Below the pieces are notes generated by a model. It was not told the DNA's origin. It was given only the letters and a program-made list of their open reading frames with translations, and made no database searches. Positions 25,314 through 52,273 of a stretch of 64,000 bases of DNA are shown piece by piece. Source of the stretch: a virus. Lineage: Duplodnaviria > Caudoviricetes. Position numbers and translations under genes: made by a program. Location of the stretch: the IMG/VR virus record IMGVR_UViG_3300031992_002338; one strand, given 5' to 3'. Numbering within the stretch: position 1 is the first letter of the stretch; the number at the start of each line of letters is the position of its first letter.

Positions 25314-27326
25314 TTATCTTAATTTACATTTAATTCGAATATCAGAATCAGGAGATTTTATTTCATACATTGAATTATAATCTCCGTAAAGAACCTTATC
25401 AACTGCCATTATATCAATCTGTTCAGATTCAGACCCTCCATCTACATTAAATGGTTCTGCCATTATTGTATTACAAGAGTTATTTTCTAATAACGCTGGT
25501 AATGGGCATTTATCTGGTGAATATCTTCCATTCCAAATTTTATAAACCCTTAAGTCAATTAGGCTCACAACGCCATCAATGAGAGTGATTTCCTTTTCCA
25601 AATCGCCTAAAAATATATCATCACCCATTTCGTGTTTATTTATGTCGAAGTAATCTTTAACTGAATTAATGATATTGGTTATCACATTTGCTGGGTTGTA
25701 ATTTTTATCTATGAAGACATCTATTCCAAGTCCTATATTATATATCCTACCGCTTTTTATTTCGATATAATCATTAATTTGTTTAAAGTTTGACATGTAT
25801 TCTAATACGTTCTCAACTAACGTTTGTGGCAGTGCAGAATCAAGTTTTCCCAATGCATTCACACCCAAAAAGTCCATTTCAATTTTATTATTAGTTTCTA
25901 TAACAGTATTTCTGAATGGAGCACCATATTTCGGAGGCATTTGCATAAGTTTGATTCTATAGTCTTTTATTGTGACTGCACGGTTCTGTGAGCTAGTGTT
26001 ATACTTCATCAGCATTTTAATTTCTTCTGTTGATGGTTCATCTTTACCAGCGACTGCTGTTGATATATTTGTAACTGTCATTGATGTTAAAACCTTTCCT
26101 CTTATACTGCCATCAGTATTGTTAACATTGCCACCCCAATCAACATTTGCAAGTGTTATTTTATTTATAGAACCAGGTCCTAAATTCGTTGAGACACCAC
26201 CACCAATTCTATATAAAACATACATTGTCCATCCTTCTTTTGGCAATATTCCAAGCATGTTATTGTTTATTTGAATTGATGCTGCATAATCTGCATATGT
26301 TGTTTGAGGCCCAGGAATTTCATCATATCCGTTACCAGCCCCAAAAATAATCTTCATATACCCGTTATCAGTAAATTCTGTTATAAATTTTTGTGTCAAT
26401 GGTTTCCACTTTCCTCTATAATATCTAGTTGTTCTAGATATAGTATTACCATTTTCATCTAACGCCATTTCATTATAATCATCATACAAATGTGGGTCAT
26501 ACATATCATTGATAATGTAGTCATCAATATTTGTTTGAGTAGCAAAACGATATTGTTCAGCCAATGAATCACATTCAAAAAAACGATATGTCATAACAGA
26601 TTGCTTTGATATTCTATATTGTTCTTCATCTATATAATATTCATAAATTTCTGGATTAGTATTAAAATTTGTGGTTTCTTTAAATATAATTGACTCTATA
26701 TTTAATACATCATTTTCTGGAAGCACAACTTCCATAAATGGCTTTATATCATTAGCATATAGAACTTTTTTGTAAATCTTTGTCACACCGTTTATAGCAA
26801 TACTAGATTTTGAAACTGTATATCCAGTGATATTCCCATTTCCATCCCTAGCTGGCATCATCTTTCTATTAGAAAACCCATCTTTGTTAAATTGTTCAGC
26901 AAAATTAATATCCTCAGTTAACTGAAAATTATAATTTCCAGCTGAAACAATACTAGTACTCTGTAATATTGGGGCATAATTCCAATCTGGAAGATGTATA
27001 TTAGTAGAATCAGTTGGCAATACACAACTTACCTCTATCTCACAAATAGATGCCTTTCTTCCAGGTATCTTTAAACCATTAGCCCTAGCTTGATTCAAAA
27101 CACTGCTTCTTAGGTTTGCACTGTCAATGTTGGTTTCTTGATACATACGGTCAGTATGATAGCTTAAATCATCACCAACAGCTGATACTAGGTCAATAAA
27201 CCATGCACCAACGCTTGAATCGTTGAAGCTGTCAGCCAATTCTGGATAATACATATTAGAGAACTTTATAAGCTCTTCCTTAATATCTTCGAATGACCTT
27301 GAAATATAATTAATCTTTTTTTCCAT
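25314..27326 (-). CDS. Baseplate wedge subunit (T4 gp6-like)
   Basis: INYISRSFEDIKEEL...FNDSSVG; IIFGAG; YRIGGG; QNRAVTIKDY; directly follows the gp25-like gene. Confidence 0.88.
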   Translation of the reverse strand: MEKKINYISRSFEDIKEELIKFSNMYYPELADSFNDSSVGAWFIDLVSAVGDDLSYHTDRMYQETNIDSANLRSSVLNQARANGLKIPGRKASICEIEVSCVLPTDSTNIHLPDWNYAPILQSTSIVSAGNYNFQLTEDINFAEQFNKDGFSNRKMMPARDGNGNITGYTVSKSSIAINGVTKIYKKVLYANDIKPFMEVVLPENDVLNIESIIFKETTNFNTNPEIYEYYIDEEQYRISKQSVMTYRFFECDSLAEQYRFATQTNIDDYIINDMYDPHLYDDYNEMALDENGNTISRTTRYYRGKWKPLTQKFITEFTDNGYMKIIFGAGNGYDEIPGPQTTYADYAASIQINNNMLGILPKEGWTMYVLYRIGGGVSTNLGPGSINKITLANVDWGGNVNNTDGSIRGKVLTSMTVTNISTAVAGKDEPSTEEIKMLMKYNTSSQNRAVTIKDYRIKLMQMPPKYGAPFRNTVIETNNKIEMDFLGVNALGKLDSALPQTLVENVLEYMSNFKQINDYIEIKSGRIYNIGLGIDVFIDKNYNPANVITNIINSVKDYFDINKHEMGDDIFLGDLEKEITLIDGVVSLIDLRVYKIWNGRYSPDKCPLPALLENNSCNTIMAEPFNVDGGSESEQIDIMAVDKVLYGDYNSMYEIKSPDSDIRIKCKLR

Positions 27327-27346
27327 ATGTTAATTTTTTACCCATT

Positions 27347-27736
27347 TTATACTTGTATTACTACGCTATCGTTAGTTACTTTATTCCCTTCAGAAACACT
27401 ATAATCTAGCCTAACATATATTTCTGTTTCATTTTCTTCATTTTTAACGATTTGTATATTATTAATTATAATGTTTGTTGCCCATCTCTTAACAGAGTCT
27501 GAAACCTCATTTTTAACTGATTCCCAAGTTGTTGAATCATTTGGTTCAAATATAAACTTAATTAAATCAGTTCCAAATTCTGGATTCCTAATTCTCTGTC
27601 CTTTAGGTGTGAACACAATATGCATCAACTGACTCCTAACCTTTTCTTTTAAAGACTCATTTGTGTCAACATAGAATTTCTGAAATTTTTCAGAAGTAAA
27701 CGGATATTTTATACCAAAATATTGTCTTTTTGCCAT
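27347..27736 (-). CDS. Baseplate wedge/sheath-initiator (T4 gp25-like)
   Basis: FTPKGQRIRNPEFGTDL...FIFEP GPW/gp25 signature. Confidence 0.92.
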   Translation of the reverse strand: MAKRQYFGIKYPFTSEKFQKFYVDTNESLKEKVRSQLMHIVFTPKGQRIRNPEFGTDLIKFIFEPNDSTTWESVKNEVSDSVKRWATNIIINNIQIVKNEENETEIYVRLDYSVSEGNKVTNDSVVIQV

Positions 27737-27753
27737 ATCAAAATTATTTCTCT

Positions 27754-27760
27754 ATAAGTA
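27754..27760 (-). promoter_or_regulatory. Candidate late promoter, variant TACTTAT
   Basis: 18 nt upstream of the first gene of the baseplate operon. Confidence 0.4.
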
Positions 27761-27795
27761 TTACAAAATATAAAATTTTTGTGGATAATATAAAC

Positions 27796-27827
27796 AAAAA
27801 AAAGCGAGAGTCACATAACTCTCGCTT
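27796..27827 (-). terminator. Intrinsic terminator
   Basis: 10-bp stem AAGCGAGAGT/ACTCTCGCTT, 6-nt loop, T-run on the minus strand. Confidence 0.85.
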
Positions 27828-27851
27828 AATTTACAAAATATAACCTACTAT

Positions 27852-28130
27852 TTAACACCTACCGTTGCTACTGCCGCAGCCACCACCTCCACCGCCACAT
27901 CTATCATTGTAGCTGTAAGATGATGAAGAGCCGCATCCACCTTCACTTGAAGAGCCACATGAAGAACAACCCAAATTGTTCTCTTGCCACAAGTATTGCA
28001 TCTTGTTTAGGTTATTCTTCCTAGCAATCTCCCTAACGATGGAATCAGTTAACGAATCAACCATTCCTTGAACTTTAGTCTTAACTATATCGGATAGTTC
28101 CTTTTCGGATAAAATAAACAATTTCTTCAT
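27852..28130 (-). CDS. 92-aa peptide with helical N-terminal region and Cys/Gly/Ser-rich C-terminal tail (candidate RiPP precursor)
   Basis: Tail CSSCGSSSEGGCGSSSSYSYNDRCGGGGGGCGSSNGRC (6 Cys in 38 aa); own promoter and terminator. Confidence 0.75.
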   Translation of the reverse strand: MKKLFILSEKELSDIVKTKVQGMVDSLTDSIVREIARKNNLNKMQYLWQENNLGCSSCGSSSEGGCGSSSSYSYNDRCGGGGGGCGSSNGRC

Positions 28131-28147
28131 ATTCTATATACTTTATG

Positions 28148-28179
28148 CAAATATATAAAAAAAATCTGAGAATTCCAAA
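28148..28179 (-). promoter_or_regulatory. Bacteroidota sigma-A-type promoter
   Basis: TTTG-20 nt-TATATTTG. Confidence 0.8.
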
Positions 28180-29043
28180 TTATATCCAATAAGGATGTAA
28201 ACTTCCATCCTCATATATCACACCAAAGCTGTATTTCTTCGCAAATAAGGCTCTTGTAGCTGCCTTAAACGTGTCGGAAAGCGTTGCATGGCGTAACTTA
28301 CACACCAAGAAGCAAACACGCTTCAGAACGAATTTTCCATCAAACGATGGAATCCAAGGTGTAATGTCGAACTCAGTCTTGCACCCATGAGCAAAAGGTG
28401 ACTTCAGCTTTATGCCAAATGCATCCTCGAATGATACATACATATCATCCCTATCAAACAATTCAGCAAGTTTGATGCTCTTAAATCCTAGTTTATTGTA
28501 ATGCTCAATGCAACGGCATATCTCTTCCTTTGTGCAAAGGAAAGGCTTAACCATGTTAATATTTATGGTAATCTTCTCTTTATGAGGTAACTCTGCATAG
28601 AATTTCTGCCTATCATAGAGTGATTTGTGGCCTCTAATCTTATCAGCAACTTCCTCGTCATAGTGCTGGGGAGATATTGAGATACCATCACAAAGGTCTA
28701 TAATTTCAAATAGTTCCTCTCTGTGCTTATATGCAGCATAAGGCAAAGACGTAATGATATACACCTTTAACTCTGTGTTATTTTTAACGAGTTTTACTAG
28801 CTTCAAAAGTTCAGCCATATAAATCATTGGCTCACCACCACTGATACCAACTGACTTAACTTCGTCTTTATGCTCAGAAATTCGCTGAAAAATCGACATA
28901 ACATCTGGTTTAGTACCTACACTATGTAAACCTTTGTTGAGTGCATCCACACAGAATGGACAGTTATTTGGGCATTTCTTCGTGAAATGAACTTGCAACT
29001 CACTTTCTATTTGGTCGCAAATATTGACGTTATACTTTATCAT
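28180..29043 (-). CDS. Radical SAM enzyme
   Basis: CPNNCPFC (CxxxCxxC) and ISGGEP; start placed at ATG 29043 (MIKYNVN), overlapping the pnuC stop. Confidence 0.9.
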   Translation of the reverse strand: MIKYNVNICDQIESELQVHFTKKCPNNCPFCVDALNKGLHSVGTKPDVMSIFQRISEHKDEVKSVGISGGEPMIYMAELLKLVKLVKNNTELKVYIITSLPYAAYKHREELFEIIDLCDGISISPQHYDEEVADKIRGHKSLYDRQKFYAELPHKEKITININMVKPFLCTKEEICRCIEHYNKLGFKSIKLAELFDRDDMYVSFEDAFGIKLKSPFAHGCKTEFDITPWIPSFDGKFVLKRVCFLVCKLRHATLSDTFKAATRALFAKKYSFGVIYEDGSLHPYWI

Positions 29044-29716
29044 CTTTATTCCACATGTAATATCCATAAATACAATTGGCAGTCCAAAATACAAACTGAG
29101 CAACCATACACCAATCACCAGCTATTGCCCACATGATGATACTACCAAGGTCAATTATCAACCAATAGAACCAACTCTCCTTAAACCTCAATATCATAAG
29201 AATTTGAGCCACAAACGCTGGAACTGTAGTTATTGCGTCCATAAATGGCTGAGTGTCATTGGTTATTAGTAAACCATAAAACAATGCAACAGATGCTAAT
29301 GCAGTTGTTACGAGCATCAATACATTTTGTGTTACTGTAAGGTGACGTGTTTTTACCTCTAAGGATTCGTTGTTATAATGGCTATTCCAATGGAACATAC
29401 CATATAGCATAGTAACAAAATAAAATATGTTTTCTACAATCTCTCCGTATAGATTTTGCTGCAAACATAATATCACATATGTAATGAGCTGGGCAAAACC
29501 AAATACATAAAACGAAATCTTCTTTTGGCTGCATAAAACAACTGAGATAACACCAAGCATACCACTAGCAAGTGATAGCTTAGTGCCACCCATTACTAAC
29601 CCCACAAAGCCTTGTGTGAGTAAACCAACAAGCATGAATATCAAACCAAACCTAGTGAGGTTAAAACTATTTCCGCTTTCTAGGGTTATAACATCAGATA
29701 ATCTATTATTCGTCAT
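29030..29716 (-). CDS. pnuC: PnuC-family nicotinamide riboside transporter
   Basis: About 7 hydrophobic helices; QPFMDAITT, VAQIL, ESWFYWLIID, NCIYGY; adjacent to NadR. Confidence 0.9.
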   Translation of the reverse strand: MTNNRLSDVITLESGNSFNLTRFGLIFMLVGLLTQGFVGLVMGGTKLSLASGMLGVISVVLCSQKKISFYVFGFAQLITYVILCLQQNLYGEIVENIFYFVTMLYGMFHWNSHYNNESLEVKTRHLTVTQNVLMLVTTALASVALFYGLLITNDTQPFMDAITTVPAFVAQILMILRFKESWFYWLIIDLGSIIMWAIAGDWCMVAQFVFWTANCIYGYYMWNKDDKV

Positions 29717-30794
29717 ATACCGAATTAATGTAATCTTTAACTCTGTTGAAATTGGCTAAGAAACTTCCATCAAGTATCTCTACCTTATCCCACAAACCAA
29801 ACTGCTTCAAAAGCTCTGTAAGCTTGTTAAAATTGGCAATACGCTCATCAATGGATGCTTGCTTCATGTAGCGGCTACCATCATCAACAAACTTGTTCTT
29901 TGGTGGTAACAAGAAAATCTTATCCCACTTAACACGGCCTTCAAGAGACTTTGCCACTGGCAACACCTTATTCTCATATTCCTCTTTTGTAATGGGAACA
30001 TTAGGGTCATCCACATATGCAAGGGCATACATCAATGTAACAAGGTTATCCGTATCTGAAATGAACACACCATTATCATTATTGAATACCCTCTTACGCA
30101 TGTCTAGGCTCTGTCCTACGAGGAAATCAACAAAATCGTCTGCTGTGAGGTCTGTATCAACCTTACCCTTATTGAGCAAGTCATCACGCCCAAACTCTTC
30201 TGAGTGCTGAATACCGAAATACGTTGAAATATCACGTACCAATGTGGTCTTACCCTCAGAAGCAGTACCAGTGATAAGGATATTATGACAGAGGTTATTG
30301 CGATACTCCCTTACGATGTACTTCCAATACTTGATAGGATTCTGACGAATGTAAGTTCCACTAACTGGCACTACCTTATCAATCAGAGTTATACGTGCAT
30401 TGAGTAAGTTATGCTTCTCAAGCATTTCCTTATAATAAGGCTCTGCAACATACCAAGTAATAGAAACACCATCATGCGAAGGTGTAATCTTGAGTTGACG
30501 CATTACCTCTTTCTGCCATATAATCCAATTATTATCACACATGGATTCGTCAATACCAAGCTGTGTGTCGTTGATTGACAAAACGTTGATAATCTCGTCA
30601 TTGGCAAATATCTTACGAACAATGGCAGTACGCTCTTTAAGAGTCATGTTGATGTTTCCAGCACGTTCCTCATTGTCATAACCACAAACAATAACAAAGC
30701 ACTTGTCATTCTCTTTCTTAGCCCTCATAATTGCGTCAAGGTGTCCTCTGTGCATTGGGCAATATCCACCGAAGCAAATTCCTATTTTAGTCAT
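29706..30794 (-). CDS. nadR: Bifunctional NMN adenylyltransferase / ribosylnicotinamide kinase (NadR without HTH)
   Basis: GGYCPMHRGH (HxGH), VSGTYIR, P-loop GTASEGKTT, EFGR, DTD, FVDDGSR. Confidence 0.9.
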   Translation of the reverse strand: MTKIGICFGGYCPMHRGHLDAIMRAKKENDKCFVIVCGYDNEERAGNINMTLKERTAIVRKIFANDEIINVLSINDTQLGIDESMCDNNWIIWQKEVMRQLKITPSHDGVSITWYVAEPYYKEMLEKHNLLNARITLIDKVVPVSGTYIRQNPIKYWKYIVREYRNNLCHNILITGTASEGKTTLVRDISTYFGIQHSEEFGRDDLLNKGKVDTDLTADDFVDFLVGQSLDMRKRVFNNDNGVFISDTDNLVTLMYALAYVDDPNVPITKEEYENKVLPVAKSLEGRVKWDKIFLLPPKNKFVDDGSRYMKQASIDERIANFNKLTELLKQFGLWDKVEILDGSFLANFNRVKDYINSVYDE

Positions 30795-31374
30795 AATACA
30801 AATCTAAAAAATCATGTAACGTATCTTCCAACTTGTCAACATACAAGTCGTAAATATTAAATAATTCATCAAAAATCTCATGCACCGCATGGTTAACCTC
30901 GTCAACCTCGCACTTGCAGCTTTCGTCAATTCTATCACTACAAGCACACTTCTCACAAGCAAATTCATTACCGTCACCATAATATCCAGTGGCAGCATGA
31001 TTATTTACAAGGTGAGTGAAATAAAGGAAATCCTTATTAGAGAAATCAACCCATCCAGTGAACTCAGCAGTAAGAGGCTGCTTATGATAGTCAATATCTA
31101 AATTGATGTCCTTTCTGATAAAGAACGTCTTTACACGCCCATCCTTATACAATGTCCTATACCACATGCTAAAAGCCGCAAATGAATAGCAAAGACAATG
31201 GCACATATAGAACTTAGACTTATCACTGTCCAATTCATCGTTAAGGTCACGTAGAATGTGTGGAATGAAAGGGCATATAACAATATATTGGTCTGTTTCT
31301 AGGTCAATATACTGCTTTCCGTACTCATACTTTTTCTTGGTCTTTTCCCAAGCATCTTTAAATGTCTTGTACAT
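30787..31374 (-). CDS. Cys-rich hypothetical protein, first gene of the nadR operon
   Basis: 195 aa; CHCLC and CEKCAC...CKC; stop overlaps the nadR start. Confidence 0.7.
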   Translation of the reverse strand: MYKTFKDAWEKTKKKYEYGKQYIDLETDQYIVICPFIPHILRDLNDELDSDKSKFYMCHCLCYSFAAFSMWYRTLYKDGRVKTFFIRKDINLDIDYHKQPLTAEFTGWVDFSNKDFLYFTHLVNNHAATGYYGDGNEFACEKCACSDRIDESCKCEVDEVNHAVHEIFDELFNIYDLYVDKLEDTLHDFLDLYYD

Positions 31375-31399
31375 ATTGATTGATTTTTACTTTCTGCTG

Positions 31400-31444
31400 C
31401 AAAGGTACGAAAAAAAATTGGATTAGCAAAAAACTAACCCAATT
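31400..31444 (-). promoter_or_regulatory. Fused intrinsic terminator and sigma-A promoter
   Basis: AATTGGGTTAG-TTTTTTG-CTAATCCAATT-TTTTTT-CG-TACCTTTG; -33 in the loop, 19-nt spacer. Confidence 0.8.
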
Positions 31445-31465
31445 TTTAACTTTATTTAATATTAT

Positions 31466-33520
31466 TTAGAATACATACTTAACCGATGCATAGAAACTGA
31501 TGGGAATGTCCACCATGTAACGAGGCTCGTTTGTGTTGGCAAGAATACCTGTCTGAAGGTTATCCCTATTGGTAATGTTGTTTATGTGAGCACTCAAGAT
31601 ATACTTGCTAATGCTATAACTGCCATAGAGATTAAGCTGCCATGCGTCAGGCACTGAATACTCATTTGCCGCATCAATATACATATGATTGCGATAGCTG
31701 TATTCAAGACCTACTGAATAGTTCTTGCCACGATACTCAGCATTCTGCCTAAACGTGCAGTTAGGAGTCATTACATGGCTCTTCTTGCCAAACGTAGCGG
31801 TCTCTACCTTGTTGTTAGACAGTGACGAATTATTAATGAGGTGAAATCCATTGAACGGCTCATAGTCAGCATAGAACTCAATACCGATACGGTGACTATT
31901 GTCTGCCTTTTCATGCTCTGGCAGTCCGTTCAGACCAATTGTACCTGTCAGTGCTCTCTCATTCTCAAACAGCATTGCAAAAAGGTTGAGGTTCATGTTC
32001 AACTTCTTCGTTGCTACATTCCAACCCAATTCAATGTCATTGGAAATCTCTGCATCTGTAGTTGTAAGCTCTCCAGTATACCACTCGTTTCCACCAAACA
32101 TATCAGTTCGTGTAGGCTCACGGTGAGCACGTGCATACTTCAGATAAAGCTCATCATGACTATTGAACTTGTACTCGGCACTTGCGCCAAAGTTAAGGAA
32201 ATTCCACTTGGTATTCTCGTCATATACTACACTTGGGTCAAGCAAGTCACGATACCAAAAGTTTACGTGACGATACTGAGCATTGATTGATGTTGTGAGG
32301 TTGCCAAACTCCTTCTTCAAATTGGCAAACACCTCAAAATCGAACTTATGCCCACGATTGTCGTAATACTCAGAGGGGTCTATGTTACGTGCTTTATCAA
32401 TATTGCGGTCATCCAAGTAATGCTCACGCTCAAACTTATAGATATTAGTTCCAAATGTCACATTACCCTTATTGAAATAATATCGTGCTGCCGCATTACC
32501 ACCATACATATGCTGCTTCAGTCCGTAGTTATAGAGCATACCAGTATTGGTCTCACTGTCTCCGCAAATCTTATAGAGGTAGTTGTCAAGGTCAAAACGA
32601 TACTCTCCTAACAGCATATTCCAATAAAGTGAAGATGTAAATAACACCTTATCACTCAGCCAACTATTGTACTGAATCTTATTGACAGTCTGAAAAAAAT
32701 TATCATCCTCTAACTCACTACAACCATTGTCCTTACGATTCTTTGATAATTCCTCCAATGTAGAACCAATATAACCTTGTCCATTGCGATGATAGCCAGT
32801 GATGGAAAGGAGGTCAATTGATGACTTATCGTTGATAAAATAGCCTAATTTCAAGCCAACTGACTTAGAGTTGTTAGAACTATGCTCTTTATAACCGTCT
32901 GTCTGTGACTGAGTTAAACGTGCATGAAATGCCCACTTACCCATTAGTCCACTATTGAAGCTTACAGAACTCTTATAGGTATTAAAGCTACCACCACCAA
33001 AGTCCACATACGATGTGGTATCCTTCAACAGATTAGTTGACTCAATGTTCACGCTTCCTCCATAGCTTGATGTACCTGGATTGTATGTACTAGTGCCTCG
33101 CCCTACACTAATTGAGCTTGCATCTGCCATAATGTCAGGACTGTTCGCAAAATAGCATCCAAAATCCTCTGCCTCATTCCAAGGCATACCATCAAGAGTT
33201 ACATTGATTCGAGTTTGGTCAAGACCACGAATACGGAAATAACCATATCCAAAGTCAGTACCGTTATCACTGAATGCAAAGATAGATGGCATCTTAGAAA
33301 ACAACCAAGAAGGCTCTTGACCATAGTTAGCCTTAATGAGAGACTTTGAATCAACAACAGAACCAAGAGTGGTTGCTGTGCGATAGAAAGATGTAACGGT
33401 CAACTCATCGAGATTCTGAGTAATGAGTGAATCATTGCCAATCTCGTCTGAAACAATTTCATCTGCGTATGATGCTGAGAACATCATCATTACAGTCATA
33501 AACACTAAAAACTTTTTCAT
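31466..33520 (-). CDS. TonB-dependent outer-membrane receptor (resembles Bacteroidota vitamin/thiamine-type receptors)
   Basis: Signal peptide MKKFLVF...SASYA; TonB box LDELTVTS; plug FRIRGLDQTRINVTLDGMP...GRG...GGSVNI; terminal KYVF. Confidence 0.92.
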   Translation of the reverse strand: MKKFLVFMTVMMMFSASYADEIVSDEIGNDSLITQNLDELTVTSFYRTATTLGSVVDSKSLIKANYGQEPSWLFSKMPSIFAFSDNGTDFGYGYFRIRGLDQTRINVTLDGMPWNEAEDFGCYFANSPDIMADASSISVGRGTSTYNPGTSSYGGSVNIESTNLLKDTTSYVDFGGGSFNTYKSSVSFNSGLMGKWAFHARLTQSQTDGYKEHSSNNSKSVGLKLGYFINDKSSIDLLSITGYHRNGQGYIGSTLEELSKNRKDNGCSELEDDNFFQTVNKIQYNSWLSDKVLFTSSLYWNMLLGEYRFDLDNYLYKICGDSETNTGMLYNYGLKQHMYGGNAAARYYFNKGNVTFGTNIYKFEREHYLDDRNIDKARNIDPSEYYDNRGHKFDFEVFANLKKEFGNLTTSINAQYRHVNFWYRDLLDPSVVYDENTKWNFLNFGASAEYKFNSHDELYLKYARAHREPTRTDMFGGNEWYTGELTTTDAEISNDIELGWNVATKKLNMNLNLFAMLFENERALTGTIGLNGLPEHEKADNSHRIGIEFYADYEPFNGFHLINNSSLSNNKVETATFGKKSHVMTPNCTFRQNAEYRGKNYSVGLEYSYRNHMYIDAANEYSVPDAWQLNLYGSYSISKYILSAHINNITNRDNLQTGILANTNEPRYMVDIPISFYASVKYVF

Positions 33521-33548
33521 TTTCTAAACAATTTATCGTTTGTGGTTG

Positions 33549-33579
33549 CAAAGATACGAAAAAAAATCAAATTAGCAAA
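33549..33579 (-). promoter_or_regulatory. Bacteroidota sigma-A-type promoter of the receptor gene
   Basis: TTTG-19 nt-TATCTTTG, ~28 nt from the ATG. Confidence 0.85.
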
Positions 33580-33649
33580 ATATTTATAAGAAAATTAACA
33601 TTTTTTAATTAACATTTAATTACCATATATAGATAAATCACAAATAATT

Positions 33650-34909
33650 ATGAAAGTTAATATAACAGCTAATCAATATAATAGTCTCATAATATCCGAA
33701 GCTGAAAATGTTGCATATAACAGAAACAACGCAAATGAACCTAACCTTAAAGCAATATGGGATACAATTGACAGAAAGCAAAAAATGCTACAAGATGAGG
33801 TATTTGGAGAGCTTAGTGAAAAAATATATGATATTACTGTAGAAAAAGCAAAATCTATGGGAGAAGAGTTTATGGAAGTTCCTAAAAATATATGTAACGC
33901 TGGAAATGATAAGCTCCCATCTAGTGTTTTAATAATAAACATGTCATCTTCTTTGATGTGTCCATCATATTATTTAGGTATATGCACCATAACTAACGGT
34001 GCATGCTATGCGCAAAGGGCTGAAAATCAATATTCTGCAAAAGATAAATCTAGTGTTTTGACTAACAGATGGAAAACTGACTTAATGCACACACAAATGT
34101 TACAGCAATATCAGCATGGCAATAAAAAACCAATGAAGGATTATTTTAACTTAATTGAAACTTATATCCAACTTGGTAATGCATATTCTGAAAATCTTTA
34201 TAAGAAAGAATATCAAAGAATGCAAATGAGACTAGGAAGAGAGCTTACGCCAGAGGAAAAAAATTTCTTGAGAATTCAACAATCAGAAAATAAAATAACT
34301 GATATTAGATTAAATGAAACTGGTGACTTCCAATGTCAATTAGCAGTAAACCTTTGGGCTAAATTTGCTGATAAAATCAAAAGGAAATACGGAATCAATA
34401 CTCATGCCTATACAGCTAGAAACCTAGATTTTTCGCAAGTTTCTGATAAAATGGCAATAAATCCTTCTCACGAAGGGATTAACTTAGGTAAGGTTGAACC
34501 AAGAATGTTTAAAGCTGTGGGTGATAAATTTTATAACAGCCTAGAAGGTGGGAATGCTGTTAAAGATAGACAACCAATATTAGGTATGGTTAATGGGAAA
34601 TATTTCTATAAATGCCCTTGTAGTAGAGGCGAAACACATTGTGACCAATGCGGTGTATGCTTTGCTAAAAATGAAACTGGAAAACCATACACCATCTATG
34701 TTAAATATCATGGGTTGGTTGCTGCAAATGGGTTTAAAAACTTATTCAAAAAAGATGAGGTCGAAAAAGTTATAGAAAAATTATATGAAAACGGATGGAT
34801 TACTGAAAAGGAATACCAATCATATATATCCCCTAAAAACCAGAATTTCTTGGATAGCATATCTAAAAAAATTGATAAACAAAGAAAAACAAAAAACAAG
34901 AAAGGCTGA
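33650..34909 (+). CDS. Cys-cluster protein resembling phage gp88-like proteins, with leader-like N-terminus
   Basis: GNDKL...CPSYYLGIC...ACYA, RLNETGDF, HAYT, CPC...CDQCGVC; TATTTATA at 33581-33588 upstream. Confidence 0.55.
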   Translation: MKVNITANQYNSLIISEAENVAYNRNNANEPNLKAIWDTIDRKQKMLQDEVFGELSEKIYDITVEKAKSMGEEFMEVPKNICNAGNDKLPSSVLIINMSSSLMCPSYYLGICTITNGACYAQRAENQYSAKDKSSVLTNRWKTDLMHTQMLQQYQHGNKKPMKDYFNLIETYIQLGNAYSENLYKKEYQRMQMRLGRELTPEEKNFLRIQQSENKITDIRLNETGDFQCQLAVNLWAKFADKIKRKYGINTHAYTARNLDFSQVSDKMAINPSHEGINLGKVEPRMFKAVGDKFYNSLEGGNAVKDRQPILGMVNGKYFYKCPCSRGETHCDQCGVCFAKNETGKPYTIYVKYHGLVAANGFKNLFKKDEVEKVIEKLYENGWITEKEYQSYISPKNQNFLDSISKKIDKQRKTKNKKG

Positions 34910-34927
34910 GAAGAATATCTCAGCCTT
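34902..34927. terminator. Terminator between convergent genes
   Basis: 10-bp stem AAGGCTGAGA/TCTCAGCCTT flanked by A- and T-rich tracts. Confidence 0.8.
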
Positions 34928-34939
34928 AATTTTTTATCT

Positions 34940-36094
34940 TTACCTAACGTAAAACCCTAACGGCTTATTTTTCAACACCTTAATCAATTGGTCGTTCATT
35001 GTGCTCTGCTTCTCCATTAAATTCCAAGGTGTCATTCTCTCAAGTCTCTCCTTCAATTCATTAAGAACTGTTTCCTTCTCTGACTTTCCTTGCTCAAGAA
35101 GCATGTTATAATCCATCTGCATTTCAGCCTCTGGTATCTTAACAGCACCACTATATGTACCCCTTATGATACCAAGCAATATCTTAGCCTCTGCCACAAG
35201 TAAACGTCTTATTATTTGCTGTGATGGGTTATTCATTAATTCATACCTCATCTTGTCTAATGGAACTTGGTCTGGCGTAATGATTATATCATCTTTATTT
35301 TCCAATCTACATTGTTCAATATCATCTTCAGAACCACTAGAAACGTCATAATACGTATACCATACATAGCAACTAGCATACTTATTCCATCCCCAAGTAT
35401 CATCAGCAGCAATGCCGCCAACCATATTTGGAGACCCAGGAACAGAAAGCAAATGTACAAGATGAGTTCCTTCTGGACCAGCTGTGACTTGATATGCTAA
35501 GTCACCTCTTAATAATGAGTTTTTATATTTAAGGTCAGCAGACATAAGGGCAGTATCATATGCAGAGCCAACATAAAAACCAGTGATGCCCATACCATTG
35601 CCCATATTTCCATATTGACCATAGCCGCCGCCAATACCAGTGTCCAATGTTCCTAGATTGCCATATAAAGCTGCTTTGGTCGTAGAAGGAGTGACGTACA
35701 TAACACGATTAATCTCTCTGCCTGCTGGAATTACATATACTTGTTTTCCTCTTTCAACTTGGAAAAAGTCTTTCTTCAATTCATAATGTCCTCTCTGTTG
35801 CAATCCTACTTCACGAGAGAACCAATACGAGAAATCACGAGACCAATCCATTGTGCGAACAGTCATTGCATATGCTAGCTCACTAGCATTTTGAAATTGT
35901 ATTTGACTTGTATTTTGTAAGTTTAGCCACTGTGTTTCAATTACCCAGTTTTGAACTTTCTCAGCATAATCACCGATGGCAACGTCCAATAAGTCGCATA
36001 GCTGCTCATCCTCAAGCTGTACGATACGAATTGGAGCACCTAACATTGTTCTAACTGTCCTAAACAGTGCCTTTACATCTTCTGTTAATACCAT
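34940..36094 (-). CDS. Neck/head-completion protein (T4 gp13-like)
   Basis: N-terminal LGAPIRIVQLEDEQL...AI; C-terminal AKILLGIIRGTYSG...P...G. Confidence 0.8.
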   Translation of the reverse strand: MVLTEDVKALFRTVRTMLGAPIRIVQLEDEQLCDLLDVAIGDYAEKVQNWVIETQWLNLQNTSQIQFQNASELAYAMTVRTMDWSRDFSYWFSREVGLQQRGHYELKKDFFQVERGKQVYVIPAGREINRVMYVTPSTTKAALYGNLGTLDTGIGGGYGQYGNMGNGMGITGFYVGSAYDTALMSADLKYKNSLLRGDLAYQVTAGPEGTHLVHLLSVPGSPNMVGGIAADDTWGWNKYASCYVWYTYYDVSSGSEDDIEQCRLENKDDIIITPDQVPLDKMRYELMNNPSQQIIRRLLVAEAKILLGIIRGTYSGAVKIPEAEMQMDYNMLLEQGKSEKETVLNELKERLERMTPWNLMEKQSTMNDQLIKVLKNKPLGFYVR

Positions 36095-39245: not shown

Positions 39246-39296
39246 AAAAAAATTTTTAAAAGTTAAACATATATTGTTAAAATCTCAATCACAATG

Positions 39297-39341
39297 CAAA
39301 TATACGAAAAAAAAGTGAAACTTCCAAAAATAGTCTCACTT
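39297..39341 (-). promoter_or_regulatory. Fused intrinsic terminator and sigma-A promoter
   Basis: AAGTGAGACT-ATTTTTGGA-AGTTTCACTT-T run-CG-TATATTTG; -33 in the loop, 20-nt spacer. Confidence 0.75.
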
Positions 39342-47260: not shown

Positions 47261-47278
47261 ATTTCAATTTCATCAATG

Positions 47279-47310
47279 CAAAGATATGAAAAAAAATGTT
47301 AAAATGCAAA
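47279..47310 (-). promoter_or_regulatory. Bacteroidota sigma-A-type promoter
   Basis: TTTG-20 nt-TATCTTTG. Confidence 0.85.
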
Positions 47311-52222: not shown

Positions 52223-52241
52223 TTTGAATTGTTAATTTTTG

Positions 52242-52273
52242 CAAAGATATAAAAAAAAGTTAAAAAAAACAAA
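52242..52273 (-). promoter_or_regulatory. Bacteroidota sigma-A-type promoter
   Basis: TTTG-20 nt-TATCTTTG. Confidence 0.85.

Follow-up and report, generated by a model that had tools for sequence, protein, structure and literature searches.

Introduction

In NARP3 of Escherichia phage TrudiRoth, experiments have shown that the PnuC-like transporter Bas30_87 and Bas30_86, a NadR without the helix-turn-helix (HTH) domain, import nicotinamide riboside (NR), synthesize nicotinamide adenine dinucleotide (NAD+), and defeat Sir2-HerA (Yan et al., Sci Adv 2026, PMC13464706); that study makes no mention of TonB or the outer membrane. Here, we describe a related module in IMG/VR virus record IMGVR_UViG_3300031992_002338, a 64,000-nucleotide stretch of phage DNA that we refer to at its full length as the window. 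The module encodes a TonB-dependent outer-membrane receptor, a NadR, a PnuC-family inner-membrane transporter, and a radical SAM enzyme, and we propose, with a probability of roughly 0.7, that its first three proteins give the phage an NAD+ supply line that brings a pyridine nucleoside or nucleotide across both membranes and makes NAD+ from it. As in NARP3, a phage PnuC adjoins an HTH-less NadR with kinase and adenylyltransferase domains, and the proposed flow runs from NR import through nicotinamide mononucleotide (NMN) to NAD+; judged by its genes, which overlap by 11 nucleotides, the pair would be of NARP3 type. Unlike NARP3, however, the window phage adds its own outer-membrane receptor, couples a radical SAM gene to pnuC, and infects Bacteroidota rather than Enterobacteriaceae. 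Its NadR is also distant, scoring 61.6 bits on 9X6F/9X6H, which we take from entry name and date to be the Bas30_86 NadR, and is closer to the NadR of Lactococcus lactis. An initial annotation of the window had put forward an import-based NAD+ route; the pathway reading stands, but import through PnuC and NadR is no novelty, having been published as NARP3 (PMC13464706). The inner two steps are those of NARP3, and the new parts are the outer-membrane receptor and the phage-only radical SAM partner.

Scarce cofactors generally cross the outer membrane of Bacteroidota through TonB-dependent transporters, and two kinds of Bacteroidota loci resemble the module. In operons of the nadV-receptor-pnuC-nadR-prs and nrtR types, a receptor of the same family (33-44% identity) is linked with PnuC and NadR. 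The bacterial order, receptor-pnuC-nadR, is retained in environmental megaphages, whereas the window order is receptor, hyp195 (an open reading frame [ORF] without a known family), nadR, pnuC, and then the radical SAM gene, with NadR and PnuC of another subfamily and with nadV and prs absent. Thiamine loci, on the other hand, combine a TonB-dependent receptor of approximately 660-700 amino acids with an inner-membrane carrier of the Pnu family and a kinase for trapping, and their receptors form a sister clade. They differ in having a thiamine pyrophosphate (TPP) riboswitch before the receptors (L089 and L091), which the NadR-linked receptors lack, in using another partner enzyme, and in forming a separate clade with a support of 100. 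By structure, the best match is PqqU/YncD (9C4O and 6V81; template modeling [TM] scores of 0.79-0.82), an importer of pyrroloquinoline quinone (PQQ) that is likewise a small plug-and-barrel transporter for a small cofactor, but the two share only 16% identity, which does not indicate a shared substrate.

Receptor genes have been seen in megaphages before. A "TonB-dependent receptor (SusC)" in Mar_Mega_1 and LR745206 was noted in passing as an auxiliary metabolic gene and read as carbohydrate uptake (Michniewski et al. 2021, PMC9723777). We found that LR745206 holds two receptors, one of them directly followed by pnuC-nadR. The other, larger one (LR745206.1 79335-79634, on the record behind locus L099) has an 883-amino-acid ORF, lies apart from the NAD module, and may be the "SusC" of the 2021 paper. 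The pnuC and nadR genes of gut jumbo phages were also catalogued earlier, without a receptor (PMC11662467), and two papers on Lak megaphages are silent on the receptor, nadR, and pnuC genes. Our search of the open literature returned no paper describing bacterial receptor-pnuC-nadR operons or the substrate of the receptor.

Results

The receptor resembles small TonB-dependent transporters

The receptor gene (P0001; 31466-33520, minus strand) encodes 684 amino acids. As read from the translation, the protein begins with a signal peptide, MKKFLVFMTVMMMFSASYA, after which the chain continues with DE. A TonB-box-like stretch, LDELTVTS, occupies residues 37-44 ahead of the plug, and its L37 and V42 are invariant in family alignment A1 and conserved in at least 90% of the rows of alignment A2. 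Pfam detects the Plug domain (PF07715) over residues 54-155 at 1.2e-8, and the last residue is Phe684. The Pfam barrel model PF00593 falls below threshold on the window receptor but does score on that of Lak-A1 and on many relatives. In an AlphaFold2 model computed from 32 relatives (predicted local distance difference test [pLDDT] of 86; predicted TM score [pTM] of 0.83), the plug sits inside a barrel of roughly 22 strands, a rough count from DSSP segments. When searched with Foldseek, the model matched the solved TonB-dependent transporters PqqU, YncD, FecA, and FhuA at TM scores of 0.72-0.82, best for PqqU/YncD, with only 12-16% identity. Together, the signal peptide, TonB box, plug and barrel, and aromatic C terminus mark the protein as a predicted TonB-dependent transporter.

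PHROGs has no family for the receptor. NCBIfam gave only two weak general receptor matches and no SusC/RagA model, and we rejected a SusC/RagA-type transporter, which would be approximately 1,000 rather than 684 amino acids long, and the receptor has no SusD-like neighbor, being adjoined by hyp195 and a phage ORF. In comparisons with relatives, both the receptor and NadR prove to be under purifying selection, with a dN of 0.08-0.23, a saturated dS, and a dN/dS of about 0.06-0.12.

NadR and PnuC are encoded in a coupled downstream operon

All genes of the module lie on the minus strand, at the coordinates given by the initial annotation. Downstream of the receptor, hyp195 overlaps nadR by 8 nucleotides, nadR overlaps pnuC by 11, and pnuC overlaps the radical SAM gene by 14. 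The NadR (P0003; 29706-30794) lacks the HTH domain and combines an NMN adenylyltransferase with a ribosylnicotinamide kinase (TIGR01526 at 1.7e-53; PF01467 and PF13521; phrog_3462), spanning profile positions 63-405 of the 411-position E. coli-type NadR model. Its best solved relative is L. lactis NadR (6GYE; 4e-43), and when the two are aligned, the motifs GxxxPxHxGH, SxTxIR, Walker A GKTT, DTD, and DDGxR are all kept, in the window stretches FGGYCPMHRGH, VSGTYIRQNP, GTASEGKTTL, SDTDNL, and VDDGSRYM. With both sets of motifs complete, the protein is predicted to be a bifunctional NadR. The PnuC-family transporter (P0004; 29030-29716; PF04973 at 1.6e-41; phrog_1880) scores 121.9 bits on the NCBIfam model TIGR01528, against a cut-off of 42.45, and matches Neisseria mucosa PnuC (4QTN) at 1.4e-21 with the Trp, Gln, and Asn positions conserved.

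The first gene of the operon, hyp195 (P0002; 30787-31374), encodes a Cys-rich protein without a signal peptide, for which nothing matched in Pfam, NCBIfam, PHROGs, or ESM Atlas. It is present in the three closest loci (L007, L008, and L009, identical by tblastn) and as a fragment in L015, and is missing or replaced in L010-L014. Since it varies among relatives, we did not count it in the pathway.

The module is conserved in megaphages

The window comes from a giant gut phage that uses the standard genetic code and has the Lak megaphages, which infect Prevotella, among its relatives. In each of 15 Lak records (approximately 540 kb), one gene shares 39-41% identity with the window receptor, and genes of the 635-735-kb phages LR745206 and LR756501-3 share 29-31%. 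Receptors with 66-99% identity are abundant in metagenome assemblies, on contigs of up to approximately 370 kb, and a group with roughly 48% identity includes some contigs of more than 400 kb.

In seven IMG/VR contigs, the receptor, NadR, PnuC, and radical SAM genes occupy the same place, between the neck gene and gp25, and the flanking genes are 64-98% identical. This common insertion point rules out a misassembly of host DNA, which the initial annotation had named as a risk. All 15 Lak records carry the receptor, and all 15 carry DNA matching the nadR region; in Lak-A1, Lak-B2, and Lak-C1, nadR-pnuC lies 5-6 kb downstream of the receptor. In LR756501, LR756502, and LR745206, on the other hand, receptor, pnuC, and nadR are directly adjacent. 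A profile scan of IMG/VR added 41 viral contigs with the receptor family, which with the others gave 56 viral loci. Downstream of the receptor and on the same strand, NadR is found in 51 of these 56 loci, PnuC in 43, and both in 41, and only two of the 56 with downstream room have neither. Co-localization, for which the initial annotation had proposed a search, thus holds in close and distant megaphages alike.

Nine viral contigs (L113, L115, L118-L123, and L138) have the receptor and a full NadR with no PnuC within 8 kb, and these phages may use the PnuC of the host or encode one elsewhere. Another contig (L018; JAFRDD010000051.1, P0089), binned as "Clostridia bacterium," has a Lak-type receptor, NadR, PnuC, and radical SAM gene and falls inside the phage clade in the trees of both receptor and NadR, so that it most likely comes from a megaphage and was binned wrongly.

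To be energized, a TonB-dependent receptor would draw on TonB-ExbBD. When five phage records were searched for a TonB C-terminal domain and for ExbB, TonB was found only in LR756501 and ExbB in none. The 735-kb LR756501 (the record behind L002) encodes a TonB C-terminal domain protein (LR756501.1 470226-470459; 268-amino-acid ORF; 81 bits) approximately 42 kb from its receptor-pnuC-nadR, while Lak-A1, LR756502, and LR745206 are without one. Since phage ExbB is absent from these records and TonB is confined to LR756501, Lak-type receptors would be energized by the host system.

The receptor comes from a bacterial family linked to NAD salvage

A scan with one genome per prokaryote species gave 80 receptor loci, almost all in Bacteroidota. 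Approximately 47 of the 80 have receptor-pnuC-nadR with genes touching or overlapping, and seven more have receptor-nadR. A nadV gene is nearby in 12 loci, eight of which also have prs. Mucilaginibacter and others have genes for a nadV-like phosphoribosyltransferase, receptor, pnuC, nadR, and prs in this order (e.g., Mucilaginibacter pocheonensis, L041), and a gut Bacteroidaceae contig (L017) has nrtR, an ADP-ribosylglycohydrolase gene, receptor, and nadR in order. A search for TPP riboswitches in 18 bacterial loci, NAD-linked or from gut Bacteroidales, found none. Among the most distant receptors of the set (28-30% identity), however, two are immediately preceded by a TPP riboswitch and have a Pnu gene close by (L089 5405-8980 and L091 5546-9109); these are receptors of the thiamine type to which the initial annotation had likened the window receptor. 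In the thiamine-type loci L089, L090, L093, and L094, a short (approximately 160 amino acids), NadR-like, kinase-only ORF lies beside the Pnu gene, which suggests that an AAA_28-type kinase may trap the vitamin there in place of the usual pyrophosphokinase.

In a mixture-model tree, the thiamine-type, riboswitch-linked clade is set apart from all NadR-linked receptors with a Shimodaira-Hasegawa-like approximate likelihood ratio test (SH-aLRT) support of 100. Lak-type phage receptors (99) are sister to gut Bacteroidales receptors (99; union, 100), while the LR756501 receptor falls within the main bacterial operon clade and those of LR756502 and LR745206 lie near the base. A FastTree phylogeny of 92 rows agrees. 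The supported branches therefore imply at least two phage captures, and the tree as drawn suggests three; the trio of receptor, NadR, and PnuC arose in phages at least twice, with three times more likely. The receptor family is bacterial and already wired to NAD salvage, not a phage invention, and Lak-type phages took their receptor from gut Bacteroidales. The initial annotation had supposed that the phage re-specified a thiamine receptor, and this idea fails, since the receptor belongs to a bacterial clade tied to pnuC-nadR and the thiamine type forms a separate sister clade.

Lak-type nadR-pnuC probably has a different origin from the receptor

The best 120 homologue matches of the window NadR are all Lak-like and reached no bacterial relatives, so we compared NadR subfamilies against structures in the Protein Data Bank. 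On L. lactis NadR (6GYE), the window NadR reaches 151 bits, compared to 62-81 bits on Haemophilus influenzae NadR, 8X7F, and 9X6F. NadRs of the Bacteroidota operons show the reverse, with 46 bits on 6GYE but 90-109 on 9X6F or 8X7F, and the window NadR is just 24-25% identical to them. The Lak-type clade has a branch of 1.8 changes per site in the NadR tree and lies away from the NadRs of bacterial operons and environmental phages. Gene order differs as well, with nadR before pnuC in Lak-type phages and pnuC before nadR in bacteria. The simplest reading of these sequence comparisons is that Lak-type phages joined a Bacteroidales receptor to a Lactococcus-like nadR-pnuC pair of another lineage, while environmental megaphages would have taken the whole bacterial block. 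Since the same trio was apparently assembled by two routes, the three genes probably work together.

A radical SAM enzyme is a phage-only partner of the module

The radical SAM gene (28180-29043, minus strand; PF04055 and PF13353) encodes 287 amino acids when read from the ATG at 29043, the start that gives the 14-nucleotide overlap with pnuC; the longest ORF begins with GTG at 29118. The family comprises 133 relatives, found only on megaphage-like contigs. In addition to CxxxCxxC, the enzyme has four more Cys residues, of which C9, C221, and C244 are invariant and C178 is nearly so. Its AlphaFold2 model (pLDDT of 89) matches viperin, MoaA, and sactipeptide/SuiB maturases about equally, at TM scores of approximately 0.6. 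A profile of the family finds it downstream of NadR in 20 of the 56 viral loci, distant environmental ones included. The same profile gave no strong match in 79 bacterial loci, with one weak general radical SAM similarity in L023, and we rejected a link to the bacterial operons. By its distribution in these sequences, the enzyme appears to be a recurrent partner of the module in phages only, with no place in the bacterial pathway.

Behind the radical SAM gene come a 92-amino-acid ORF with a Cys/Gly/Ser-rich tail (P0366; 27852-28130, minus strand) and then a strong terminator, the stretch from ORF to enzyme spanning 27852-29043. The terminator-like hairpin (27802-27827, minus strand; 11-bp stem and T run) would end the transcript that runs from hyp195 to the 92-amino-acid ORF, which probably shares it with the operon. 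The peptide is weakly conserved or missing in relatives that keep the enzyme, and a strict enzyme-and-precursor-peptide reading is weakened accordingly.

The module has probable phage-wide promoters of host type

Both transcription units are preceded by the element TTTG-N19-TAnnTTTG, with leaders of about 20-25 nucleotides; we take this element to be the Bacteroidetes promoter consensus. The receptor promoter (33547-33579, minus strand) has its -33 TTTG at 33579-33576, a 19-nucleotide spacer, and its -7 TAtcTTTG at 33556-33549, leaving a leader of approximately 22-25 nucleotides to the ATG at 33520. The second promoter, before hyp195-nadR-pnuC-radical SAM (31398-31430, minus strand), has TTTG at 31430-31427, the same spacer length, and TAccTTTG at 31407-31400. 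An extended motif containing the Bacteroidetes -7 element, TTTTCGTAYCTTTGCA, has seven copies in the window, all on the minus strand, compared to 0.14 expected (850-865, 2849-2864, 31398-31413, 33547-33562, 39295-39310, 47277-47292, and 52240-52255). The five copies that we placed against the ORF list, at 31398, 33547, 39295, 47277, and 52240, lie upstream of non-structural genes. These copies are probably one temporal class of phage promoters, and the module promoters look like members of a phage-wide class read by a host sigma factor.

An Rfam search of 27000-35000 gave no family match at E values of up to 1, and thus no TPP riboswitch before the receptor. Much of what the initial annotation had read from this DNA was borne out: an intact receptor with its signal peptide, TonB box, plug, and terminal Phe; the overlaps of 8, 11, and 14 nucleotides; a host-type promoter before each unit; and a leader without room for a riboswitch. 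The context points to NAD rather than thiamine, given the NadR partner, the lack of a TPP riboswitch, and the company of nadV, prs, and nrtR in bacterial relatives.

The surroundings are clearly those of a phage. A baseplate wedge gene (25314-27326) and the gp25 baseplate gene (27347-27736) flank the module region on one side, and a neck-like gene (34940-36094), which matches a PHROGs head-tail adaptor weakly over 62 residues, lies on the other. The island (window positions 28001-34000) has a G+C content of 0.36-0.39, compared to approximately 0.30-0.34 for most of the window, in keeping with acquisition from a host. Large structural ORFs of the window are without in-frame TAG, and we rejected TAG recoding since the standard code reads cleanly. 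In Lak-A1, on the other hand, neighboring late genes have up to 12 recoded TAGs, while receptor, NadR, and PnuC have none, which fits expression of the NAD genes ahead of the genetic-code switch. A DUF4407 gene with seven in-frame TAG codons (L001 14127-15422) sits between the receptor and nadR-pnuC of Lak-A1.

Discussion

Our analysis shows the gene content of the module with its domains, motifs, and fold, its synteny and phylogeny, and purifying selection; for its substrate, transport, enzyme activities, and purpose, we propose the following. The receptor would be made from its host-type promoter, exported, and placed in the outer membrane of the host, where TonB-ExbBD of the host would power uptake of a pyridine nucleoside or nucleotide. 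PnuC carries NR, which makes NR the simplest and most likely substrate, although NMN or NAD trimmed in the periplasm is possible. PnuC would then carry the riboside through the inner membrane, and NadR would phosphorylate it to NMN, trapping it, before adenylylating NMN to NAD+. Over a long infection, the phage would benefit from an NAD+ pool that is raised or replenished, which may feed NAD-consuming phage enzymes, counter NAD-depleting defenses such as Thoeris or Sir2, or both.

Several observations weigh against this proposal. The putative substrate is read from the gene neighborhood, and NMN or NAD as a substrate would need a periplasmic nucleotidase, none of which is seen in the module. 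Synthesis and insertion of a barrel take time, so that a benefit assumes a long infection cycle. The Lak-type PnuC has a branch length of 2.5 changes per site, and the PnuC tree gives it no clear position with respect to thiamine-type Pnu transporters. The closest bacterial receptors (approximately 40% identity; gut Bacteroidaceae and Barnesiella) are mostly solitary, with no pnuC or nadR within 7 kb, and in Lak A, B, and C the receptor is separated from nadR-pnuC by the gap described above.

A bolder version of the proposal, which we regard as doubtful, is that the receptor clade represents the first TonB-dependent transporters for pyridine nucleosides or nucleotides, that megaphages of Bacteroidota assembled the trio at least twice, in Lak-type phages from parts of different origin, and that the added phage-only radical SAM enzyme may have as its substrate the imported precursor, NAD itself, or immune signals derived from NAD.

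Among the alternatives, the one that survives best, although we consider it unlikely, is that the receptor acts apart from PnuC and NadR, on iron, a cofactor, or another nutrient, and that the neighborhood is a legacy of DNA acquisition. The frequently solitary state of the closest gut bacterial homologues would agree with this, as would the siderophore and PQQ transporters among the best fold matches and the published reading of a megaphage receptor as "SusC" with a suggested role in carbohydrate uptake (PMC9723777). However, the linkage is kept in bacteria and phages across receptors that are only 29-40% identical, and the Lak-type trio was rebuilt from components of separate descent, which speaks for selection on the three genes together. 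The fold matches, at 12-16% identity, are uninformative on substrate, and the hallmarks of SusC (a SusC/RagA match, a greater length than 684 amino acids, and a SusD-like neighbor) are absent.

It is more improbable still that the module imports thiamine or another vitamin through an OMthi-type thiamine receptor. Pnu transporters also carry thiamine and riboflavin, the nearest other receptor clade (28-30% identity) is the thiamine type with TPP riboswitches and nearby Pnu genes, and the Pnu tree leaves the position of the Lak-type PnuC free. Yet what is coupled here is a full NadR, with every motif in place, rather than a thiamine pyrophosphokinase, the receptor falls outside the thiamine clade with a support of 100, its 20-25-nucleotide leader has no riboswitch and is too short for one, and bacterial relatives adjoin nadV, prs, and nrtR.

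We give very little credence to a role at the cell surface, whether the receptor were to lure away competing phages or colicin-like toxins as a decoy or to help exclude superinfecting phages. TonB-dependent receptors are common receptors for phages and bacteriocins, and FhuA complexes are among the fold matches, but the TonB box, the plug, and many residues invariant with bacterial transporters are conserved here, none of which a mere decoy needs, and the tight linkage to PnuC and NadR would be left unexplained. Finally, that the island is misassembled host DNA or a decaying passenger, as its slightly higher G+C content (0.36-0.39, compared to about 0.30-0.34 in the flanks) might suggest, is hardly credible given the single insertion point between the neck gene and gp25 in seven IMG/VR contigs, its presence in all 15 Lak genomes, the intact frames and low dN/dS, and a promoter motif common to other phage genes in the window.

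We therefore favor the NAD+ supply line, and that unrelated megaphages have put the trio together repeatedly, and as a mosaic, is good evidence of selection on it. If the proposal is correct, a phage-borne receptor implies that uptake across the outer membrane limits a NARP3-like route in Bacteroidota, and the module would be a rare case of a virus remodeling the outer-membrane transport of its host for nutrition. Action of the radical SAM enzyme as suggested above, if true, would be a new enzymatic layer of counter-defense. Beyond phages, our data predict a substrate for a widespread family of Bacteroidota receptors, which bears on the sharing of vitamin B3 in gut and environmental communities.

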